Positions 14,446 to 23,161 are shown, numbered from the stretch's first letter. The stretch: DNA of 32,511 nucleotides from an uncultured Gammaproteobacteria bacterium (GCA_964485315.1 CAZAIV010000113.1:1-32511); one strand, 5' to 3'. Translations and numbers: made by a program. The notes: generated by a model from the letters alone, not told the origin.

Positions 14446-14474
14446 TTGATATTTTGTTCATTTTTTGCTATTAT
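14446..14474 (+). promoter_or_regulatory. Sigma70-like promoter candidate
   Basis: TTGATA (14446-14451), a 17-nt spacer, then TATTAT (14469-14474). The ATG at 14487 follows 12 nt later. Confidence 0.4.
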
Positions 14475-14486
14475 ATTTATGAATAT

Positions 14487-15206
14487 ATGAGATCAGAGGC
14501 AGAGCCAATTTACAGAGAAAGGCAACCCATTACTTGTGAGGGGGTAGCACGAAGAATTACAGACGTTGTAAGAGTTTATCAGGATGCTGGCTATGATCCT
14601 AGACTCATTGGCTTATTTGGCCGTCAAGCATCCCTTAATACTGACGTTCCTTCTGTCACTAGGAATAATGGAGCATATAGAGACATTGATCTGACAGTAC
14701 TATCAATACCTGCAGGGAGAGACATTGCCTCTTTAGATCATGAAGCGAGGCACATTGCATACCCAATTGGTCTTGATACGTTCAATTCTCTTTTTGTTAA
14801 TAATGCTAATGGAGCAACAAGTATAAGATATAAAGGTATCCTTCTTCCGATTGACCCAAAAGTTATTGAATCTAGAGAAGGACATTTAGCAGATGTAGCA
14901 ATTCCTACATTTAATCCCAGAACACTTTTTCATCTATCGGCATTATATATATCGATGAGATCAAAAGATAAAACATCGTTGCTGCAATTTGGAAGAAATA
15001 TGCGCAATGCAACCGATCTTTTGCCCGAAGAATTATTTGAACCTTTTCATCATATGATGGACATAAAAAGAAGAGAGTATCCTTTGGATATGTTCGTAGT
15101 TGCATTACACGACTTTTATTCTAATTACTGTCCCTCAACAATAAGGCAGAAATTACATCCCATCTTGGGAAAAGCTATCATGTCATTCTGGAACAGAGAT
15201 AGATGA
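14487..15206 (+). CDS. Hypothetical protein with a possible Pol-beta-type nucleotidyltransferase motif
   Basis: 239 aa from the first ATG; the 14454 start in the ORF track is a TTG inside the promoter. LIGLFGRQAS...YRDIDLTVL resembles the hG[GS]...DxD NTase signature. The 3' end overlaps the convergent Clp-like gene by 24 nt. Confidence 0.55.
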   Translation: MRSEAEPIYRERQPITCEGVARRITDVVRVYQDAGYDPRLIGLFGRQASLNTDVPSVTRNNGAYRDIDLTVLSIPAGRDIASLDHEARHIAYPIGLDTFNSLFVNNANGATSIRYKGILLPIDPKVIESREGHLADVAIPTFNPRTLFHLSALYISMRSKDKTSLLQFGRNMRNATDLLPEELFEPFHHMMDIKRREYPLDMFVVALHDFYSNYCPSTIRQKLHPILGKAIMSFWNRDR

Positions 15207-17600
15207 ATTTATGAAGGGTATTAACACAATATTGTTCCCGTCGTCAACCGTCATTACCAATTTGTCTCCGCGTTTGACTTGATCTTTTAATTTTCCCTGC
15301 GCGATCAGATCTTCCACGTGATCCTGAATATATCTTCTCATCGGTCTGGCGCCGAATTCCACATCCGCTCCCTCATTCACAATCTTTTGTATCAATTTCT
15401 CATCAAACACAAGAGTAATATCCTGCTCTTCAAGTTGTTTGGTAATACTTGTTAAGAGTAGCCCGACGATTTGCGTTAATTCCGGCACACCAAGCGGCTT
15501 AAACATGACGATTTCATCAAAACGATTCAATAATTCGGGTTTGAAGAGTTGTTTCTCCTGCAGATATTCCAACAATTTTCGCTGAAATGCCTTATCGATC
15601 TGTACTCCTTTAACCAGGTTCTCACGAACAAATTCCGCTCCTGCATTTGACGTTGCAATGATGATGCTGTTCACGAAAGAGACTGTTTTCCCTTTATTAT
15701 CCGTCAATCTCCCGTCCTCAAATACTTGAAGGAACAAATCCAGAATCCTCGGACTTGCTTTCTCAAATTCATCAAGCAAAACCAGAGAAAACGGATGATC
15801 ATGGATCTTATCGGTAAGTTCTCCTCTGTCATTTCCCTCGCCCGGCGCAGCCCCGAGCAGTCGTCTTTCTCCGTCACTATCAGAATACTCACTCATGTCA
15901 AGCCGAATCATGTTATTTTCGTCTCCGTAATATACTTGCGCCAATGCTTTCGCAGTTTCGGATTTTCCCACACCTGTCGGACCGAGGAACAAAAAAGAAA
16001 TCGGCCGTGTCGATGTCGTTAAACCGGAACGCAATCGCCTGATTGCTTCACTTATTGCCGAGATCGCATGCACCTGATCAATCACCCGAGCATGCAGTTT
16101 CTCTTCAAGATGGAGAAGTAAATCTTTTTCCTTCGCAGTCGGAGTACCGACATTCACATGAGTCTTCTTACTGATTTGCTCTTCGACATCCGATGCCAAG
16201 ACCATCTTTCCCTTCGCTAACGCAACGCTATTGGCAGTGTCATTCAAGAGTGTTACCGCGCTTCCCGGCAGCACGTCGTCCTGATCATATCTGTCTGCCA
16301 ATTCGACTGCCGAAATAACCGATAAATACGTAAGGGTAACTCCTTCATTCATCCGCTCAATCATATTTGATTTTTTCATAAGCATTTCCGTCGCGATATC
16401 CACACGCGGCTCATCAATAGTAATCACCGCAAAAACGTCTTTCAGAGGATTTTGCGCCAGATACGTTTTGAAATTCCCGGGAGTCATCGATGCAATAATC
16501 GCTAAATTACCGCTGTGCAGATACGGCATAAGCGCACCCGATACATCAAGTCCATACGAAGAAGAACCCATGAGATTTTGAAAATCCGGAATGTATAAAA
16601 TGACATTTTGTGAATGACTGACTTCCTCAATAATTGCCTGCAACCGTTCTTCAAGCTGGCTTCTCGTCTGCGCCCCCGCGATTAAAGGACCAACCATCAG
16701 CTCAAGCACTTTTTTGTAATTTAGCCGGGAAGAAAGAAACCCATAATAGCTGTCATCGGTTAATTTCGCGACTAAATTTTCTTTCCCGACACCCTGTTCG
16801 CCAACCAACATAACGTTATTCGTCTCACGTTTGCTTAAAGCCTCCAGCATTAACTTATACGATGTTTCTCTGCCTGCCAGAAATGGAATAATATTCGCCG
16901 CTCCATAAGTGAAATTCGCGGTGTACTTCTGTGTTTCCAGTGTCCATCCGCTCACCAATGATTCGCCAATTCCTTCACCCATAAAATGCACGCCTCCGGA
17001 CATCGGAAATTCCTCTTGTATATACTCTTTTCTTGCCCATTGCAGAATACGATAGACATCATCCGTTTTCAATTGGTGATTGAAAAATAGTTTCGTTTGC
17101 TCTTCAGTCATAAGAAGATAACTGATAAAAAAATCCATTGTCGTAATAAATTCACCTTTGACAGTTTTTACTATTTCCGTCGCTTCTGTCATGATCTGAT
17201 CTTTCTGTAAAGAGATACATGGTACATCTGCAGCAGTCATCCCCGATTTTCCGAGAAGAAAACGGATCTGTGGGTATGTGTAGAGTCGCTTCAGGCAATA
17301 TTGCATATCGACTGAAGATAGGTAGACACGTAAAAGCTCGGATGAACAGGATTCCAGATAATTCTTCTGTGTGTTTTTACTTAGAGACAATGTGGGATGG
17401 TAATGATACAGATGATACCGGAAAAAAAATTCAATGATCGTAAACCAGATGAGAAAGAAAAGAGGAAACTTGAATGACGCATGATGAACTACTTGACTGA
17501 ACAACAAAAAGACAATCAGGAAAATTATCAGCAATCGTATCACGCGAATCAATGCTGAAGTGTAAAAAAGATATAAACGTGTATATTGTTCACCTGTCAT
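15183..17600 (-). CDS. Membrane-anchored Hsp100/Clp-family ATPase with a degenerate NBD1 and an intact NBD2
   Basis: 805-aa ORF.
- Two N-terminal TM helices (aa ~15-60), followed by Clp_N-like repeats.
- NBD1 Walker A reads GEQGVGKE (nt 16779-16802; canonical GxPGVGKT).
- NBD1 Walker B reads ILYIPD (nt 16584-16601; canonical ILFIDE).
- The RRFQ arginine motif reads KDVFAV.
- NBD2 is canonical: GPTGVGKSE, LVLLDEFEKA, ATSN, ELLNRFDEIV, GARPMRR.
- There is no M-domain and no IG[FL] loop. Confidence 0.85.
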   Translation of the reverse strand: MTGEQYTRLYLFYTSALIRVIRLLIIFLIVFLLFSQVVHHASFKFPLFFLIWFTIIEFFFRYHLYHYHPTLSLSKNTQKNYLESCSSELLRVYLSSVDMQYCLKRLYTYPQIRFLLGKSGMTAADVPCISLQKDQIMTEATEIVKTVKGEFITTMDFFISYLLMTEEQTKLFFNHQLKTDDVYRILQWARKEYIQEEFPMSGGVHFMGEGIGESLVSGWTLETQKYTANFTYGAANIIPFLAGRETSYKLMLEALSKRETNNVMLVGEQGVGKENLVAKLTDDSYYGFLSSRLNYKKVLELMVGPLIAGAQTRSQLEERLQAIIEEVSHSQNVILYIPDFQNLMGSSSYGLDVSGALMPYLHSGNLAIIASMTPGNFKTYLAQNPLKDVFAVITIDEPRVDIATEMLMKKSNMIERMNEGVTLTYLSVISAVELADRYDQDDVLPGSAVTLLNDTANSVALAKGKMVLASDVEEQISKKTHVNVGTPTAKEKDLLLHLEEKLHARVIDQVHAISAISEAIRRLRSGLTTSTRPISFLFLGPTGVGKSETAKALAQVYYGDENNMIRLDMSEYSDSDGERRLLGAAPGEGNDRGELTDKIHDHPFSLVLLDEFEKASPRILDLFLQVFEDGRLTDNKGKTVSFVNSIIIATSNAGAEFVRENLVKGVQIDKAFQRKLLEYLQEKQLFKPELLNRFDEIVMFKPLGVPELTQIVGLLLTSITKQLEEQDITLVFDEKLIQKIVNEGADVEFGARPMRRYIQDHVEDLIAQGKLKDQVKRGDKLVMTVDDGNNIVLIPFINSSISVPE

Positions 17601-17929
17601 ACAGTAAAGAAAAGTAAGAAAAACGAAAAGAACGGCAAAAGTATAAAACCGAAGAGAAATAAGAACTCAAAGACAAGTAAGAGAATAAAAAGAAGCAGTG
17701 AAAAAAGAATCAGAACCGATTTTATGAACATCCCCATACCGATTGAAAATCCCACCAACCCCTGTCTGTATTCGTTTTTGATCGGCTGAAAAAATGTTTT
17801 GAGGAGCGCTGAAAATGAAAAAAAACGGAAAAAGGAGCTGTTCAAAGAACCGAAATAACTGACGAATGCAAGAGGCGCATCGATATACCAGAATTTCGCG
17901 ATAACCAATGGCAGGAGTGGATATTGCAT
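17597..17929 (-). CDS. Small polytopic membrane protein (110 aa), translationally coupled to the membrane-anchored Clp-like gene
   Basis: It is very hydrophobic and Phe/Leu-rich. Its TGA overlaps the downstream ATG in an ATGA (17597-17600). Confidence 0.55.
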   Translation of the reverse strand: MQYPLLPLVIAKFWYIDAPLAFVSYFGSLNSSFFRFFSFSALLKTFFQPIKNEYRQGLVGFSIGMGMFIKSVLILFSLLLFILLLVFEFLFLFGFILLPFFSFFLLFFTV

Positions 17930-17971: not shown

Positions 17972-19819
17972 TTACTCGCAGGTAAATGTACAAAGCTGTA
18001 TGCTTCCGGTACCTGCTTGGCAGTGGCTTACCATTTTACATCCGTTTCTACTGACCCCTGTCGGCGCCGGAAGTAATGTATTTCCCTCTCCTTGCGGCGC
18101 TTCTGTAGTGACGGGTGTTGGTGTAAAAATAACTGTTGGCGTTACCGGGACATCCGCGCATGCAGGAACTTGTTCCTGAATTGATTCACATACCGGACCG
18201 TTTTGATCGTCTTCAGGCTGCTGATCAAGTTCTGTTGCCTGAAGTGCTGTCTCAACATTCTTGCACGTTGTCGAGCTGGCTGAATAGAGATCATTACAGC
18301 TAAGGAGTAGAGCAATGTACATATCTTTAAAATTCGCCGAGGGAGTGAGATACCGCGTAAGCGCACGATATTCTATCGCATAACTTTTATCACGACCTAT
18401 ACCGTTTATATGACACCCGTTGAAATCGCCTCCCTGAACCATGAGATAAAACGCTTTATTTGCAACACTCGTATTGGTATGCAGCCCGCCAGCATCATCA
18501 CTTCCGCATGCATAGAACGGTGAAAATAACCGGTCGGGCTGATTCCGTCTGGTCGGATCATCCAGATACCGAACCGGTGTCACCAAGCCCGGCACATGCA
18601 CATCTCCCGCAAGTTCCCATGTATCAGTCATTGCAGTCGCGAAAATATCTGACATGCTTTCATTCAGCGCTCCGGATTGATATGAATACATAAGTCCCGC
18701 TGTTGTTTTCGTTACGCCATGGGTCAATTCATGCATGACCATATCGGGTTCTACCATACCGTCACAGAACTGGACTGAACCGGAAACAAACGCTGCGTTG
18801 GGGCACGAATATCCCGCGATATCTATTCTATGTGCATATCCCTGTAAAACTGCTCCGTGATTATCATAACTGTCACGATTGAAGTGGTCATTATAAAACG
18901 CGTATACTCTGCCCAAGTAGGTATACAGATTATTTACGTCACTATCAATAATTGCGCTTTGCCCTTCGGATCTGGCCGCCGGACATGTATCTGTTTCATG
19001 ACAGTTATACACAATACGATTAAGTGCCTGTTCCAATTGTGACTCCTGATAGATAATCTTTCCGCTTTCCAGATCGATAAAATATTGCGTCGCAAAACTG
19101 ACAGGTAATTTTTCAGATGTCATTAATACCGCGAGTGTTCTGTATGTTGTTGTATCCTTTCCTCTGCCAAGAACTTGCAAATTAAGCGCGTACTCATGTG
19201 TGTTGGTAACTAAAAGAGCAATTCGACCACCGCTATCTTTTTGCGCCTGCGCTATTGCGGCACGAACCGCCTGTGTATTCGGAATATTTGCCTGTGACAA
19301 TCGATTGCTCATCACGAGGTTTCCCGTAGCGGCATAGATTTCGTCATTGTTTTTTATATGAACGGCAACCCGGGATCCGTACACGGGAAGTTTATCAATT
19401 GTCTGCTGGAAAAAATAATGTTCCGTATGAGGCAACTGATCGTCAGTCACACTTCGTGAAAGTAGTATCGACGACGAAAAATTATCGGGGAAAAGTTTTG
19501 GACCGAAAAACTGCTGCGGGTCTTGACGGATAAACTCGTATGCTGCCTGCAGATTCATAGATTTTGCTTTATAGATATATCCGGTAAGTTTATATAAAGA
19601 AAATGAACTCAAGTTTTCACGCGAAACCTGATATGAGCCGCTTCCGAATTGTTCAAGATTAATATATGTCTGCCCGCTGAGGTAAGAAATAAAAGAAGAA
19701 AGAAATAAAACAAAAAGAATAATAACTAAAATACGATTATGCAGAAGAAACGATTTTATCAATGAAAATGACATGTATTTATCATACAACATCACCGGGA
19801 AAAGTATCTCTGCGCTCAT
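17972..19819 (-). CDS. Thermolysin-family (M4) zinc metalloprotease with an N-terminal membrane anchor or signal and a Cys-rich C-terminus
   Basis: 615-aa ORF. HELTH lies at nt 18719-18733 within VMHELTHGVT. It is followed by GALNESMSDIFA and GGLHTNTSVANKAFYL, the three M4 signature blocks. The N-terminal hydrophobic segment is ILVIILFVLFLSSFISYL. The C-terminus has a Pro/Thr linker and a 4-Cys end (CKMVSHCQAGTGSIQLCTFTCE). Confidence 0.9.
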   Translation of the reverse strand: MSAEILFPVMLYDKYMSFSLIKSFLLHNRILVIILFVLFLSSFISYLSGQTYINLEQFGSGSYQVSRENLSSFSLYKLTGYIYKAKSMNLQAAYEFIRQDPQQFFGPKLFPDNFSSSILLSRSVTDDQLPHTEHYFFQQTIDKLPVYGSRVAVHIKNNDEIYAATGNLVMSNRLSQANIPNTQAVRAAIAQAQKDSGGRIALLVTNTHEYALNLQVLGRGKDTTTYRTLAVLMTSEKLPVSFATQYFIDLESGKIIYQESQLEQALNRIVYNCHETDTCPAARSEGQSAIIDSDVNNLYTYLGRVYAFYNDHFNRDSYDNHGAVLQGYAHRIDIAGYSCPNAAFVSGSVQFCDGMVEPDMVMHELTHGVTKTTAGLMYSYQSGALNESMSDIFATAMTDTWELAGDVHVPGLVTPVRYLDDPTRRNQPDRLFSPFYACGSDDAGGLHTNTSVANKAFYLMVQGGDFNGCHINGIGRDKSYAIEYRALTRYLTPSANFKDMYIALLLSCNDLYSASSTTCKNVETALQATELDQQPEDDQNGPVCESIQEQVPACADVPVTPTVIFTPTPVTTEAPQGEGNTLLPAPTGVSRNGCKMVSHCQAGTGSIQLCTFTCE

Positions 19820-20191: not shown

Positions 20192-23161
20192 TTACGCGAA
20201 TTCAGTGGTCTCTTCATCCGTGTCATCCAATAGATTTGCCGCAGAGACAGCAGGCGGACTGAAACTCGCGGCGCTTACTGCAGGATTCACCGGAGATGCC
20301 GGTGGCATTTGATCAATGGGGGTAACCGGTTGTATAGCCGGTTGCGCGGGGGCGAGAATACCGACAGGCACTTCAGCGAGTCCGGGAGTTGCAGGTATTA
20401 ACTCAGGTTGCGGTACTCCGGGTGTGATGCCGATAACTGCTCCGGCCGGCACCGGTACCGGATTCACAGGAGCAGCTTGAGGTTGTCCCTGTTCTTGCAT
20501 CGGAACTGCTGCTGCAATATCATTCACGCTTGGCATAATTGTCTGAGAAGCAGCTTGCGGTGCAATTTGCTGCTGCGAAGAGCCTGACGTAACCGGTATC
20601 TGTTCCTCCTGGACAGTGTTTTGTTCAAGTTGCGCTGTAGGTTGTTGTTGAGAAGTCGGTGACACAGATGTTGCATTCGGCTGATCGGACTGAGCAGCTA
20701 CTTTCGTAAATACGAAGTTCGCCTGCTGATCGGAATAGTCAATTTGAATGGTATCTCCCTGAACAAATGTTTTATTGATAAGAAGCATCGCAATTGGATT
20801 TTCAATAGCAGTCTGAATCAGGCGACGAAGCGGTCTCGCGCCATATTGCGGATCATATCCGTCTTTGGCAAGTTTTTGTAATGCAGCATCCGTAACTTCC
20901 AACGTATATCCTTGGTCCTTGAGAAGTTTGCCTGTTTTCTCCACGCCGAGTTTAGCGATAAATTGCATATCTTCCTGACGAAGCGGCTTAAACATGACGA
21001 TTTCATCAAAACGATTCAGCAATTCCGGACGGAAGAATTTATGCAAGTCTTCAGATACTTTTGCCTGCATGTCCGCATACATTTTGTCAAACTCCTCTTT
21101 CAACTTTGTCGGCTTAGACAATTCCTCCTGAATATCCGTGCTTCCAATGTTTGACGTCGCGATGACAATCGTATTTTTGAAAGAAATAGTATTCCCTTTA
21201 TTATCTGTTAACCGTCCGTCTTCAAGAAGCTGTAAAAGAATATTAAAGACATCGGGGTGTGCTTTCTCAACTTCATCAAGAAGAACAATTGAATATGGTT
21301 TTGCGCGTACCGCTTCTGTCAATTGTCCGCCTTCTTCATATCCGACATACCCCGGAGGCGCGCCAATCAACTTGGCAACTTCATGTTTTTCCATATATTC
21401 TGACATGTCCAGCCGAACCATCGCATCATCCCGGCCGAATAAAATTTCCGCCAATGTCTTGGCCAATTCCGTTTTCCCTGTACCGGTCGGGCCTAGGAAA
21501 ATAAAAGATGCAATCGGACGGTTCGCTGCAGCCAAACCAATTCTCCCGCGCCGTACCGCTTCCGATACTGCCTCAACCGCCTGATCCTGATCAATTAATC
21601 GTTGATGAATTTTCTTATCCAATTCCAATAATTTCGCGCTTTCATCTTCAGTCAGTTTCGTAATCGGAATTCCTGTCCATGCGCTGACCACTCGTTCTAT
21701 ATCACTCTTGACAACGGTATTGTCTTCACGTTTACCGTCATTATGCTGCAGCCGCACATCTGCTGAGGCTTCATCCAAAAGGTCAACTGCCTTATCGGGA
21801 AGATATCTTTCCCCAATATATTTTTTGGACAGCTGTACGGCAGATCGCAATGCCTCGTCAGGAATTATCACAGAATGAAATTTCTCGTATTTCGGTTTCA
21901 GTACCTGCAGCATGAGAAACGCATTATCTTCATCAGGTTCTTCACAGACAATCGGCTGAAAACGGCGCGCAAATGCCTTATCCTTTTCGAAATATTTCCG
22001 GTATTCCGATGTCGTTGTTGTGCCAATAATCTGCAGCTGTCCACGCGCAAGATTGGGTTTAATGATATTTGACGCGTCAAGCGCACTGTCACTTTCTCCT
22101 GCACCTATTAGCGTATGAATCTCATCAATAAATAAAATAACCTGACCTGATACCGCCATAGCATCACGCATAATATTCCGCAAACGTTCTTCAAACTCTC
22201 CTCGGTGGCTTGCGCCTGCGACAAGAGAAGCAACATCCAGTTGGATAATCCGTTTATTTTGTAAGTCTTTCGGTACGGTTCCCGCAATGATTTGCTCTGC
22301 CAAACCCTCTATAATTGCCGTTTTCCCGACACCTGCTTCGCCGATAATAATAGGATTATTTTTCGTTCTTCGAAGTAAAATATGGATAAGCCGGTCTACT
22401 TCTTTTTCCCTTCCCGCGACAGGATCCAGCTCTCCGGCTTTCGCTTTTGCAGTGAGATCAACACCGAATTTATCCAGGACTGTTTTTCTTCCCTCAGCAT
22501 ACGTAGGCGATTTCTCCAGTTTTTCCACAATTGCTTCTTTCTGAACACCTTGCGCTTGCAACATAGCTGCTGTTGATAATCCGGAAGAGAAAAGAACAAC
22601 AAGAATATCTTCCGGAGCGATAAATGTACTTATGCGATCCTTTGCGTTTTTAAATGCTTCTTCAAAGATCTGCTTCACCTGGTCGCTCATGGTGGGTTGA
22701 CCCATGTAACTCCCCATTACTGCTTTGCTTTGCAGTTCACGCGACAACTTCGCTACATCAACTGAGAATTGTTCAAGTAGCTTATAAATCTCTTCATCAT
22801 ACAGAAGTCCAAATAATACTTGCTCCGGCATAATCATTGATTGTTTAATACGAGTTGTCTCTTGCTGGGCATGCGCGAGTACTTGCGTCGATCGGGCATC
22901 GAGGTGAGACAATGCTGAGAGATCTTCCCGTCTTGTCGGATCCATTGTCACCCCTCCTACCGGCGGATGAGAAGATGATCCGAATCCGGACATCATCGGA
23001 TTTGGTACAGAGCGTATTGGCATAACAGGAGCAGGGGAAACAGTTTGCACAGGCCCACCCGCGGAAATTCCCTGTGTGACTTGCCCTGGTTGCAGTGAAG
23101 TCGCCGCAGGTTCAGCATATGTTGTATCGTCTCTTTTTGTACCAAATAAATTTCCTAACAT
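20192..23161 (-). CDS. Two-ring Hsp100 ATPase with ClpA-type architecture (no M-domain, no ClpP-docking loop) and long disordered N- and C-terminal extensions
   Basis: 989-aa ORF.
- It has a Clp_N domain.
- NBD1 motifs: GEAGVGKTAI, ILFIDEIHTLIGAG, ARRFQPI.
- NBD2 motifs: GPTGTGKTELAK, IVLLDEVEKAH, ATSN, ELLNRFDEIV, GARPLRR.
- Only ~12 aa lie between DEASADVRLQ and VVKSDIERVVSAWTGIP, where ClpB carries a ~120-aa coiled coil.
- There is no [ILV]G[FL] tripeptide after sensor-1.
- The N-terminal extension is ~85 aa and P/G/S-rich.
- The C-terminal tail is 168 aa and P/Q/A/V-rich (nt 20195-20698), ending in the acidic DDTDEETTEFA. Confidence 0.9.
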   Translation of the reverse strand: MLGNLFGTKRDDTTYAEPAATSLQPGQVTQGISAGGPVQTVSPAPVMPIRSVPNPMMSGFGSSSHPPVGGVTMDPTRREDLSALSHLDARSTQVLAHAQQETTRIKQSMIMPEQVLFGLLYDEEIYKLLEQFSVDVAKLSRELQSKAVMGSYMGQPTMSDQVKQIFEEAFKNAKDRISTFIAPEDILVVLFSSGLSTAAMLQAQGVQKEAIVEKLEKSPTYAEGRKTVLDKFGVDLTAKAKAGELDPVAGREKEVDRLIHILLRRTKNNPIIIGEAGVGKTAIIEGLAEQIIAGTVPKDLQNKRIIQLDVASLVAGASHRGEFEERLRNIMRDAMAVSGQVILFIDEIHTLIGAGESDSALDASNIIKPNLARGQLQIIGTTTTSEYRKYFEKDKAFARRFQPIVCEEPDEDNAFLMLQVLKPKYEKFHSVIIPDEALRSAVQLSKKYIGERYLPDKAVDLLDEASADVRLQHNDGKREDNTVVKSDIERVVSAWTGIPITKLTEDESAKLLELDKKIHQRLIDQDQAVEAVSEAVRRGRIGLAAANRPIASFIFLGPTGTGKTELAKTLAEILFGRDDAMVRLDMSEYMEKHEVAKLIGAPPGYVGYEEGGQLTEAVRAKPYSIVLLDEVEKAHPDVFNILLQLLEDGRLTDNKGNTISFKNTIVIATSNIGSTDIQEELSKPTKLKEEFDKMYADMQAKVSEDLHKFFRPELLNRFDEIVMFKPLRQEDMQFIAKLGVEKTGKLLKDQGYTLEVTDAALQKLAKDGYDPQYGARPLRRLIQTAIENPIAMLLINKTFVQGDTIQIDYSDQQANFVFTKVAAQSDQPNATSVSPTSQQQPTAQLEQNTVQEEQIPVTSGSSQQQIAPQAASQTIMPSVNDIAAAVPMQEQGQPQAAPVNPVPVPAGAVIGITPGVPQPELIPATPGLAEVPVGILAPAQPAIQPVTPIDQMPPASPVNPAVSAASFSPPAVSAANLLDDTDEETTEFA

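Follow-up and report, generated by a model that had tools for sequence, protein, structure and literature searches.

A putatively membrane-tethered Clp/Hsp100 paralogue with a degenerate first ATPase module and its conserved small partner in Patescibacteria

Hsp100/Clp proteins are textbook soluble threading motors. What, then, might such a protein do if it sat in the membrane, kept one working ATPase ring and was encoded together with a small hydrophobic protein? This question is raised by a contig deposited under the title of an uncultured Gammaproteobacteria bacterium (GCA_964485315.1, CAZAIV010000113.1:1-32511). The window, by which we mean the whole 32,511-nucleotide stretch analysed, encodes on its minus strand an 805-residue Clp-family protein, here called TMClp, and immediately upstream of it a 110-residue protein, p110. 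We find that p110 and TMClp are a real conserved gene pair, forming one unit that is widespread in Patescibacteria, and we hold with moderate confidence that the two proteins make up a two-component membrane AAA+ machine that works without processive substrate threading. The pair is laid out as follows.

15183-17600, minus strand: TMClp, 805-residue, putatively membrane-anchored class-I Clp/Hsp100 paralogue (open reading frame, profile, alignment, AlphaFold2, Foldseek)
17597-17929, minus strand: p110, 110-residue partner protein (open reading frame, ATGA overlap, conserved adjacency)

The TMClp open reading frame (ORF) opens at the earliest start codon downstream of the preceding in-frame stop. 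As the first-pass annotation of this DNA had noted, the p110 stop codon and the TMClp ATG share an ATGA at 17597-17600: the junction reads ...TTT ACT GTA TGA CAG GTG..., the p110 end ACT GTA TGA overlapping the TMClp start ATG ACA GGT.

TMClp is a class-I Clp/Hsp100 protein with two tandem AAA+ modules followed by a D2-small domain. Pfam detects AAA_2 (6.9e-43) and ClpB_D2-small (2.2e-20) in its C-terminal half; in the first half all AAA matches are sub-threshold, and AAA_lid_9 falls just under its cut-off (22.2 against 22.8 bits). Its alignments to ClpA, ClpC and ClpB span the whole protein, ClpC being the best sequence match (5.9e-112), and Foldseek matches it to ClpC/ClpB protomers with a target-normalised TM-score of ~0.8 (E 5.6e-54). 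The NCBIfam models for ClpB (TIGR03346, 429 bits against a cut-off of 1232), ClpA (TIGR02639, 387 against 993, aligned over TMClp residues 127-782), ClpV (TIGR03345, 343 against 885) and ClpK/G also align, all with scores far under the curated cut-offs. A Pfam search gave no match to a Peptidase_M41 domain. AlphaFold2, supplied with an alignment of 109 sequences, returned a model with a mean predicted local distance difference test score (pLDDT) of 92.5 and a predicted template modelling score of 0.86, in which helices 3-13, 16-38 and 44-64 are followed by a helical domain (81-197) and two AAA+ modules. The nucleotide-binding domains (NBD1 and NBD2) and the regions ahead of them lie at these positions.

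17409-17600, minus strand: N-terminal amphipathic helix (3-13) plus predicted membrane hairpin, residues 1-64 (hydropathy, AlphaFold2, alignment)
17010-17360, minus strand: all-helical domain at the Clp N-domain position, residues 81-197 (structure and position only)
16905-17009, minus strand: family-specific conserved loop between N-domain and NBD1, residues 198-232 (alignments)
16206-16904, minus strand: NBD1, degenerate first AAA+ module, residues 233-465 (alignment, conservation)
15231-16085, minus strand: NBD2, catalytically canonical AAA+ module plus D2-small, residues 506-790 (Pfam, ClpC alignment)

Residues 81-197 form eight helices in the AlphaFold2 model, and the ClpA model aligns from residue 127, that is, from the second repeat of the Clp N-domain (a double four-helix repeat) onward; Pfam finds no Clp_N match in TMClp. 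The following loop (198-232) is modelled with a lower pLDDT of 68-70 and reads GEGIGE..V.GWT.ET.KYT..FT, with G208, G210, G218, W219 and T220 invariant in a 27-sequence set of close relatives. No counterpart of the M-domain (ClpC residues 405-471) was found, its position being spanned by TMClp residues 462-467. Two samples underlie the conservation statements below: a close set of the 120 best homologues (45-75% identity, labelled Levybacteria, Patescibacteria or mislabelled metagenome-assembled genomes) and a phylum-wide alignment of 109 sequences. Mean column entropy is 0.91 bits in the NBD2 large domain, 1.51 in the NBD1 large domain and ~2.2 in the N-domain and hairpin.

The first peculiarity of TMClp is its N-terminus. 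The first-pass annotation had described two strongly hydrophobic helices there, and three lines of evidence agree with it: hydropathy marks segments 9-44 and 41-60, AlphaFold2 places its helices (16-38 and 44-64) with a pLDDT of at least 88 in each 10-residue block of the N-terminal region, and charge follows the positive-inside pattern. An aligned N-terminus is present in 100 of the 120 close homologues. In these the hairpin is conserved, with R22 and E57 invariant, and P69 beyond it is found in 94%. Across these 100 sequences, the mean number of lysine and arginine residues is 3.6 ahead of helix 1, 1.0 within the 9-residue loop and 4.0 beyond helix 2, a pattern that points to an N-in/C-in topology with a cytoplasmic ATPase. 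TMClp is thus predicted, from charge pattern and model, to be tethered at the cytoplasmic face of the membrane by a two-helix N-in/C-in hairpin.

A soluble Clp whose real start lies downstream would make the anchor an artefact of annotation, and no Shine-Dalgarno sequence is evident ahead of the TMClp ATG. We nevertheless give this explanation almost no credence: protein-level conservation extends over residues 1-64 in those 100 homologues, including the invariant R22 and E57; the next methionine after the start is residue 99, within the N-domain; the TMClp start abuts or overlaps the partner's stop in many loci; and in-frame fusions, described below, keep membrane segments ahead of the N-domain. 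The conserved downstream start that the first-pass annotation had named as refuting its reading is thus not borne out.

In some family members (loci, numbered with the prefix L, L031, L052, L056, L057, L062, L063, L068, L073 and L078) a double CxxCxGxG-like zinc ribbon precedes the hairpin. It resembles the central domain of DnaJ, scoring below threshold against PF00684 (E 6e-5 to 0.05). This subset supports the N-in topology and hints at polypeptide binding.

The second peculiarity lies in NBD1. The motif register was set by a residue-by-residue HMMER alignment to B. subtilis ClpC, which located the four diagnostic elements.

16779-16802, minus strand: NBD1 Walker A GEQGVGKE, residues 267-274, Thr replaced by Glu (ClpC alignment)
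16659-16676, minus strand: NBD1 pore-loop 1 GAQTRS, residues 309-314, Thr for the Tyr of K-Y-R (ClpC alignment)
16584-16601, minus strand: NBD1 Walker B ILYIPD, residues 334-339, DE replaced by PD (ClpC alignment)
16428-16442, minus strand: NBD1 Arg-finger position KDVFA, RRFQ lost, DVFA being residues 388-391 (ClpC alignment)

From ClpC to TMClp, GEPGVGKT becomes GEQGVGKE, ILFIDE becomes ILYIPD, LERRFQ becomes LKDVFA and AGTKYRGEFE becomes AGAQTRSQLE. This alignment finds the motifs in register, and the substitutions read in the first-pass annotation (Walker A Thr to Glu, Walker B DE to PD and RRFQ to DVFA) stand, coordinates included. The degenerate states are fixed as consensus motifs across the 120 homologues. 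There the Walker A motif reads G-x-x-G-x-G followed by Lys (108) or Arg (12) and then by Glu in 98; the Walker B Asp position is Pro in 117, with the next residue Glu in 70 and Asp in 44; the position of the Arg pair reads [K/R]-E/D-[V/A]-F-[T/E], without Arg-Arg in any of them; and the pore-loop Tyr position holds Asn, Asp, Ser or Thr. Because these motif states are conserved across the close set, the changes are conserved family traits and not decay or chance. Phylum-wide, the three P-loop glycines of NBD1 are invariant among the 109 sequences, and the Arg-Arg pair is kept by none of the full-length members. Some lineages (the L030, L038, L042 and L061 types) retain GKT together with D-[DE] in NBD1, so that loss of the Arg and Tyr residues looks older than the Walker changes. 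A Walker A Glu or Asp coincides with a Walker B Pro in 61 sequences and with an Asp in 2. We considered compensation of the Walker B Pro by the Walker A Glu and claim no covariation, most of the co-occurring sequences being close kin. NBD1 nonetheless appears to be under purifying selection still, because its large domain (1.51 bits) is more conserved than the N-domain and the hairpin (~2.2). We infer that NBD1 would bind nucleotide but be unable to hydrolyse it normally.

NBD2 presents a different picture. Its Walker A (GPTGVGKS), Walker B (LLDEFE), sensor-1 (ATSN), Arg finger (NRFD, R693) and sensor-2 (GARPMRR) are canonical, each catalytic position is conserved in at least 108 of the 120 homologues, R693 is invariant, and the Walker motifs are canonical in all full-length members across the phylum. 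The earlier proposal of a single active ring therefore agrees with the family-wide pattern, in which NBD1 is without the Walker A Thr, the Walker B Asp and both Arg fingers and NBD2 is the most conserved region. The accompanying statement that NBD2 keeps every canonical motif is right for the catalytic motifs but not for the pore-loop tyrosine (GYVG), which is missing.

15822-15845, minus strand: NBD2 pore-loop 2 PGEGNDRG, non-aromatic, two residues under the length of GYVGYEEGG (ClpC alignment)

The TMClp pore-loop 2, APGEGNDRGE, corresponds to PPGYVGYDEGGQ in ClpC; it contains no aromatic residue and is shorter by two positions, and comparison of the longer segments (GAAPGEGNDRGE in TMClp, GSPPGYVGYDEGGQ in ClpC) confirms that the tyrosine is gone. 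Pore-loop 1 in turn has AQTR in place of the canonical KYR. The loss is again a property of the family: the aromatic residue is missing from pore-loop 1 in 107 of the 109 sequences and from pore-loop 2 in 101, and pore-loop 2 is hypervariable in both length and sequence. At the ClpP-docking VGF/IGF position TMClp has KGV (LVKGVQID), and the family consensus is E-K-G-T-A-I-D. To our knowledge, all threading Clp/Hsp100, FtsH and Msp1 proteins characterised so far depend on the aromatic pore-loop residue. The label of unfoldase given to TMClp in the first-pass annotation does not fit a protein in which this residue is absent from both rings and pore-loop 2 is shortened and hypervariable.

The third peculiarity is the partner. 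p110 consists of a lysine- and arginine-rich, putatively cytoplasmic N-terminal part with a helix at 3-36, a conserved loop ...KTFFQPIKNEYRQG... and a hydrophobic C-terminal helix at 59-109 with a near-invariant Pro99. In the AlphaFold2 model (pLDDT 95.6), helix 3-36 is followed by the conserved loop (45-58) and then by a single unbroken helix (59-109). Conserved features of the family are W-[WH]-Y, FS...L.KTLF.PWKRD and SR..G...R, and its members end in 31-51 uninterrupted hydrophobic residues containing W...P. Searches of Pfam, NCBIfam, PDB sequences and PDB folds returned no relatives, and homologues, which fall into ~2100 clusters at 50% identity, carry only the name "hypothetical protein" in their sources.

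Scanning a single genome for each species yielded 80 loci of the family, labelled Levy-, Gottesman-, Davies-, Saccharibacteria-, Parcubacteria-, Berkel-, Doudna-, Uhr-, Morani-, Nealson-, Kuenen-, Yanofsky- and Wirthbacteria. Nearly all full-length TMClp homologues among them have N-terminal hydrophobic segments. An iterated profile found a p110 homologue in 74 of the 80 loci, nearly always immediately 5' and on the same strand, and in many cases sharing nucleotides with the start of the Clp gene; among the six loci that gave no match are some cut by a contig end, such as L020 and L025. The adjacent gene pairs collected comprise 64 unfused p110 genes, each beside its Clp. p110 occurs once per genome in 183 of 301 sampled Patescibacteria genomes and in 165 of the 262 of high quality. 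When all neighbouring ORFs were clustered, p110 was the sole neighbour common across the phylum. In the literature searched, coverage of which was incomplete, we found no published description of the p110-TMClp family. Several contigs with Levybacteria-type synteny (L003, L007, L008, L010, L012, L015, L017 and L020-L023) are deposited as 'uncultured Gammaproteobacteria' or 'Methylomirabilota'; these titles look like taxonomic mislabels of metagenome-assembled genomes.

Natural fusions tie the two proteins together more directly. The p110 module and the Clp share one open frame in nine of the 80 loci, and 20 further single-frame fusions were read among phylum-sample matches in open frames of 700-930 residues, giving 29 in-frame p110::Clp fusions (L009, L035, L044, L045, L053, L065, L070, L071, L079 and L081-L100). 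These constitute Rosetta-stone evidence that p110 and the Clp act together and, with the adjacency in 74 of 80 loci, support the functional link between the Clp and the 110-residue protein. The fusions were assigned to classes by manual reading, automatic counting of membrane segments being unreliable. In ~26 of the 29, the p110 tail is followed by a short polar loop, one more membrane helix and then the Clp N-domain; the Levybacteria fusion L009 retains just the equivalent of the second Clp helix. Three (L045, L070 and L099) have the p110 tail alone, and none of the 29 keeps the p110 tail together with both Clp helices, that is, four membrane segments. Since the ATPase must be cytoplasmic, the majority class fits a p110 that is N-in, crosses the membrane once, ends C-out and replaces the first Clp helix. 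The minority fusions need p110 to be a hairpin or a non-crossing anchor, which is incompatible with the majority topology.

How might such a pair work? In the non-threading machine that we favour, p110 and TMClp would be two subunits of one membrane-embedded AAA+ machine that is specific to Patescibacteria and widespread among them. TMClp, assumed by homology to be a hexamer, would combine NBD1 as a nucleotide-binding, non-hydrolysing assembly ring, like NSF-D2 or PEX1/6-D1, with NBD2 as the sole motor. Neither pore loop has an aromatic residue, and pore-loop 2, besides being short and hydrophilic, is unconstrained; this motor would therefore not thread polypeptides hand over hand. Its ATP cycle would produce a non-processive conformational change, which the N-domain and linker would relay to p110 and the membrane helices, and something in or at the membrane would be remodelled or gated as the outcome. 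p110 probably packs on the second membrane helix of the Clp, because its own helix replaces the first one in most fusions, and its lysine- and arginine-rich part would lie beside the Clp N-domain.

Several points weigh against this reading, and some of them speak for its main rival, in which TMClp would be a membrane-tethered, single-motor threading unfoldase or dislocase, comparable to a protease-free FtsH or Msp1. Such a machine would draw proteins in or near the membrane through its pore and into the cytoplasm, and p110 would serve it as an adaptor or as a receptor for substrates. The N-domain and NBD1, which form the entry face, would point at the membrane, held by a linker of ~15 residues in the AlphaFold2 model, which by analogy is the extractase geometry of FtsH. 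The zinc ribbon of the DnaJ-type CxxCxGxG-like pattern in part of the family, sub-threshold as it is, and the position of the pair beside dnaK-dnaJ in Levybacteria both hint at polypeptide clients. NBD2 is fully catalytic, and the short membrane helices carry the invariant charged residues R22 and E57; by analogy with dislocases, such charges in helices of this kind may point to a thinned membrane. Nor are non-aromatic pore loops a strict bar to translocation. The favoured reading is further weakened in that nucleotide binding by NBD1 is taken only from conservation, that the hexameric state is assumed by homology, and that the two fusion classes imply different membrane topologies for p110. 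Against threading stand the absence of an aromatic residue from both pore loops, the lack of conservation of pore-loop 2 within the family, unexpected for an element that grips substrate, and the absence of either a downstream protease or an M-domain that would give threading a purpose. On this evidence we regard a threading dislocase as possible but on balance doubtful.

TMClp and p110 could also be a largely non-enzymatic membrane scaffold, or a regulator of a different machine such as FtsH, Sec/YidC or the division proteins, with ATP binding and hydrolysis serving as an assembly switch only. One degenerate ring, the loss of both pore loops, the presence of FtsH and Lon as the genome's ATP-dependent proteases and the single-copy, widely conserved, housekeeping-like character of the pair would suit such a role. 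Yet every hydrolysis position of NBD2 is kept in 108 or more of the 120 close homologues, and no region of the protein is more conserved than NBD2, which argues for real ATP turnover, and apart from p110 no gene co-occurs consistently with the pair; we consider a scaffold improbable. Somewhat less so, though still unlikely, is a bolder version of the non-threading machine, in which an Hsp100-derived ring has given up threading and its motor ring moves a ring of membrane helices, its own and those of p110, as a new kind of machine and a hallmark of Patescibacteria. If this were true, the machine could, for instance, open and close a conduit, or shift lipids or proteins, at the membrane of cells that depend on a host and are auxotrophic for lipids.

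Comparison with known systems sets the non-threading machine in context. Like ClpC and ClpA (PDB 3j3t, 7abr and 7uiv), TMClp has the domain order N-domain, NBD1, NBD2, D2-small, and like ClpA it is without a long M-domain. Unlike them, it has a predicted membrane hairpin, an NBD1 without the Walker B Asp, the Walker A Thr and the Arg fingers, no pore-loop tyrosines, no IGF/VGF loop, no ClpP found in its genome and an apparently obligate small membrane partner. With ClpB/Hsp104 it shares the two-ring Hsp100 plan without a protease and a very similar NBD2 (429 bits with the ClpB model), but it has neither the coiled-coil M-domain, which in ClpB/Hsp104 is the docking site for Hsp70, nor the pore tyrosines, its NBD1 appears dead and it would be membrane-bound. 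As in FtsH and Msp1/ATAD1, the N-terminal anchor would put the entry face of a hexameric AAA+ ring at the cytoplasmic membrane surface; FtsH and Msp1, however, rely on a single AAA module whose aromatic pore loop is essential, whereas TMClp has two modules and no aromatic loops, and it is without the M41 protease domain of FtsH, which is separately encoded here. In the type-II AAA+ proteins NSF, PEX1/PEX6 and p97, one ring has low activity or none; as proposed for TMClp, it binds nucleotide in a structural role while the other ring is the motor. These proteins, however, belong to the classical AAA clade, are soluble and have aromatic pore loops in the active ring.

The closest functional analogy to TMClp-p110 is the Torsin system, which is likewise membrane-associated, with non-aromatic loops and a membrane partner. 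Torsins are related to the D2 module of Hsp100, are without aromatic pore loops and are thought not to thread substrates; with LAP1/LULL1, they are membrane-associated by an N-terminal hydrophobic segment and have a membrane-anchored partner (PMC5425593). Unlike TMClp, Torsins are eukaryotic proteins of the endoplasmic reticulum lumen with a single AAA+ module and take their Arg finger from the cofactor; NBD2 of TMClp has its own Arg finger, R693, and p110 does not have an AAA-like fold.

TMClp probably does something other than classical unfolding. Its branch would represent an Hsp100 turned membrane-embedded, with the gripping loops lost in both rings and an obligate, sometimes fused partner, and the pair is nevertheless kept in single copy by most of the lineages sampled from Patescibacteria, a huge group of host-dependent bacteria whose genomes are tiny. 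Knowledge of its job would widen the known functions of AAA+ rings and attach a function to two widespread gene families now called "hypothetical" or misnamed; the natural fusions provide single-chain constructs for biochemistry and cryo-electron microscopy.

The source genome itself is small, ~0.8-1.1 Mb (0.81 Mb assembled at 75% completeness), and holds three Hsp100 genes: TMClp, a second Clp gene of the window (Clp2) and a ClpB-like gene on contig C33, which has a ~130-residue insertion at the M-domain position. A PF00574 search did not find ClpP in this 75% complete genome, and of 61 genomes of the order, most of them over 90% complete, two have a real match of ClpP size, in keeping with the earlier proposal of an unfoldase without a protease. 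ClpX was not found in the source genome either. FtsH is encoded on contigs C99 and C111 and a full-length Lon on contig C104. Three Hsp100 paralogues without ClpP in so tiny a genome suggest a distinct and important job for TMClp. Databases name TMClp homologues "ATP-dependent Clp protease ATP-binding subunit", which is misleading where the genome has no ClpP.

The surrounding genes might point to a more specific role. The first-pass annotation had suggested that TMClp may act for the products of the neighbouring cluster, which would make it an accessory ATPase dedicated to a secretion or surface-structure system (a pilin-like protein, a giant VirB6-like protein, Clp2 and an M4 protease). The genes of the window from 28875 down to 15183 indeed lie on one strand with short spacers, the order VirB6-like, Clp2, p110, TMClp recurs in L001, L002, L006, L007, L009, L015 and L022, and L017 carries these genes too, with a dnaJ separating Clp2 from p110. 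In Levybacteria, however, the general order is (dnaK-dnaJ), a variable insert, p110, TMClp, nusA, infB and DHH, and the VirB6-like, Clp2 and M4 genes of the window are one version of that insert. They are absent from L004, L010, L013, L014 and L023, where p110-TMClp lies directly after dnaJ or in quite another setting; because the pair occurs without these genes in such relatives, the link to the cluster is rejected. Nearly all non-Levybacteria loci are also without the cluster genes, and the M4 protease is essentially limited to the window. We therefore judge a dedicated cluster ATPase very improbable. Beyond p110 the neighbours are lineage-specific: nusA-infB-DHH in Levybacteria, and PolX, a major facilitator superfamily protein, NUDIX, L20 and IF3 elsewhere. 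No type VI secretion system genes occur among the neighbours examined.

Two genes of the insert deserve mention in their own right. An M4 (thermolysin-like) peptidase is encoded at 17972-19819 (minus strand), between Clp2 and p110; its only match among 80 related loci is a weak one in L001, over 38 C-terminal residues. Clp2 (989 residues, 20192-23161, minus strand) carries canonical Walker and Arg-finger motifs in each of its two rings; its pore-loop 2 is a normal GYVGY, and pore-loop 1 has SHR instead of KYR. It is without an M-domain and carries long proline- and glutamine-rich N- and C-terminal tails. It is found in some relatives only, adjoining the VirB6-like gene. TMClp and Clp2 share an identical stretch of 38 nucleotides (AAGCGGCTTAAACATGACGATTTCATCAAAACGATTCA, given on the plus strand; 15492-15529 and 20981-21018), which encodes a common ELLNRFDEIVMFKPL in proteins that are only ~37% identical. 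The identity could reflect micro gene-conversion or a strong constraint on codons and amino acids.

A scan of the window for promoters and terminators gave counts no higher than in shuffled sequence; the sole feature was a weak hairpin past the TMClp stop, at 15170-15158. On the opposite strand, an ORF of 250 residues with a TTG start (14454-15206, plus strand) overlaps the 3' end of TMClp by 24 nucleotides. It has no match in Pfam or NCBIfam and no homologue was found in the related loci, and it may not be a real gene. At the far end of the window, a 403-residue ORF (104-1315, minus strand) matches the Lon model in its AAA+ region alone (model positions 247-572) and may encode a Lon-like ATPase without a protease domain.

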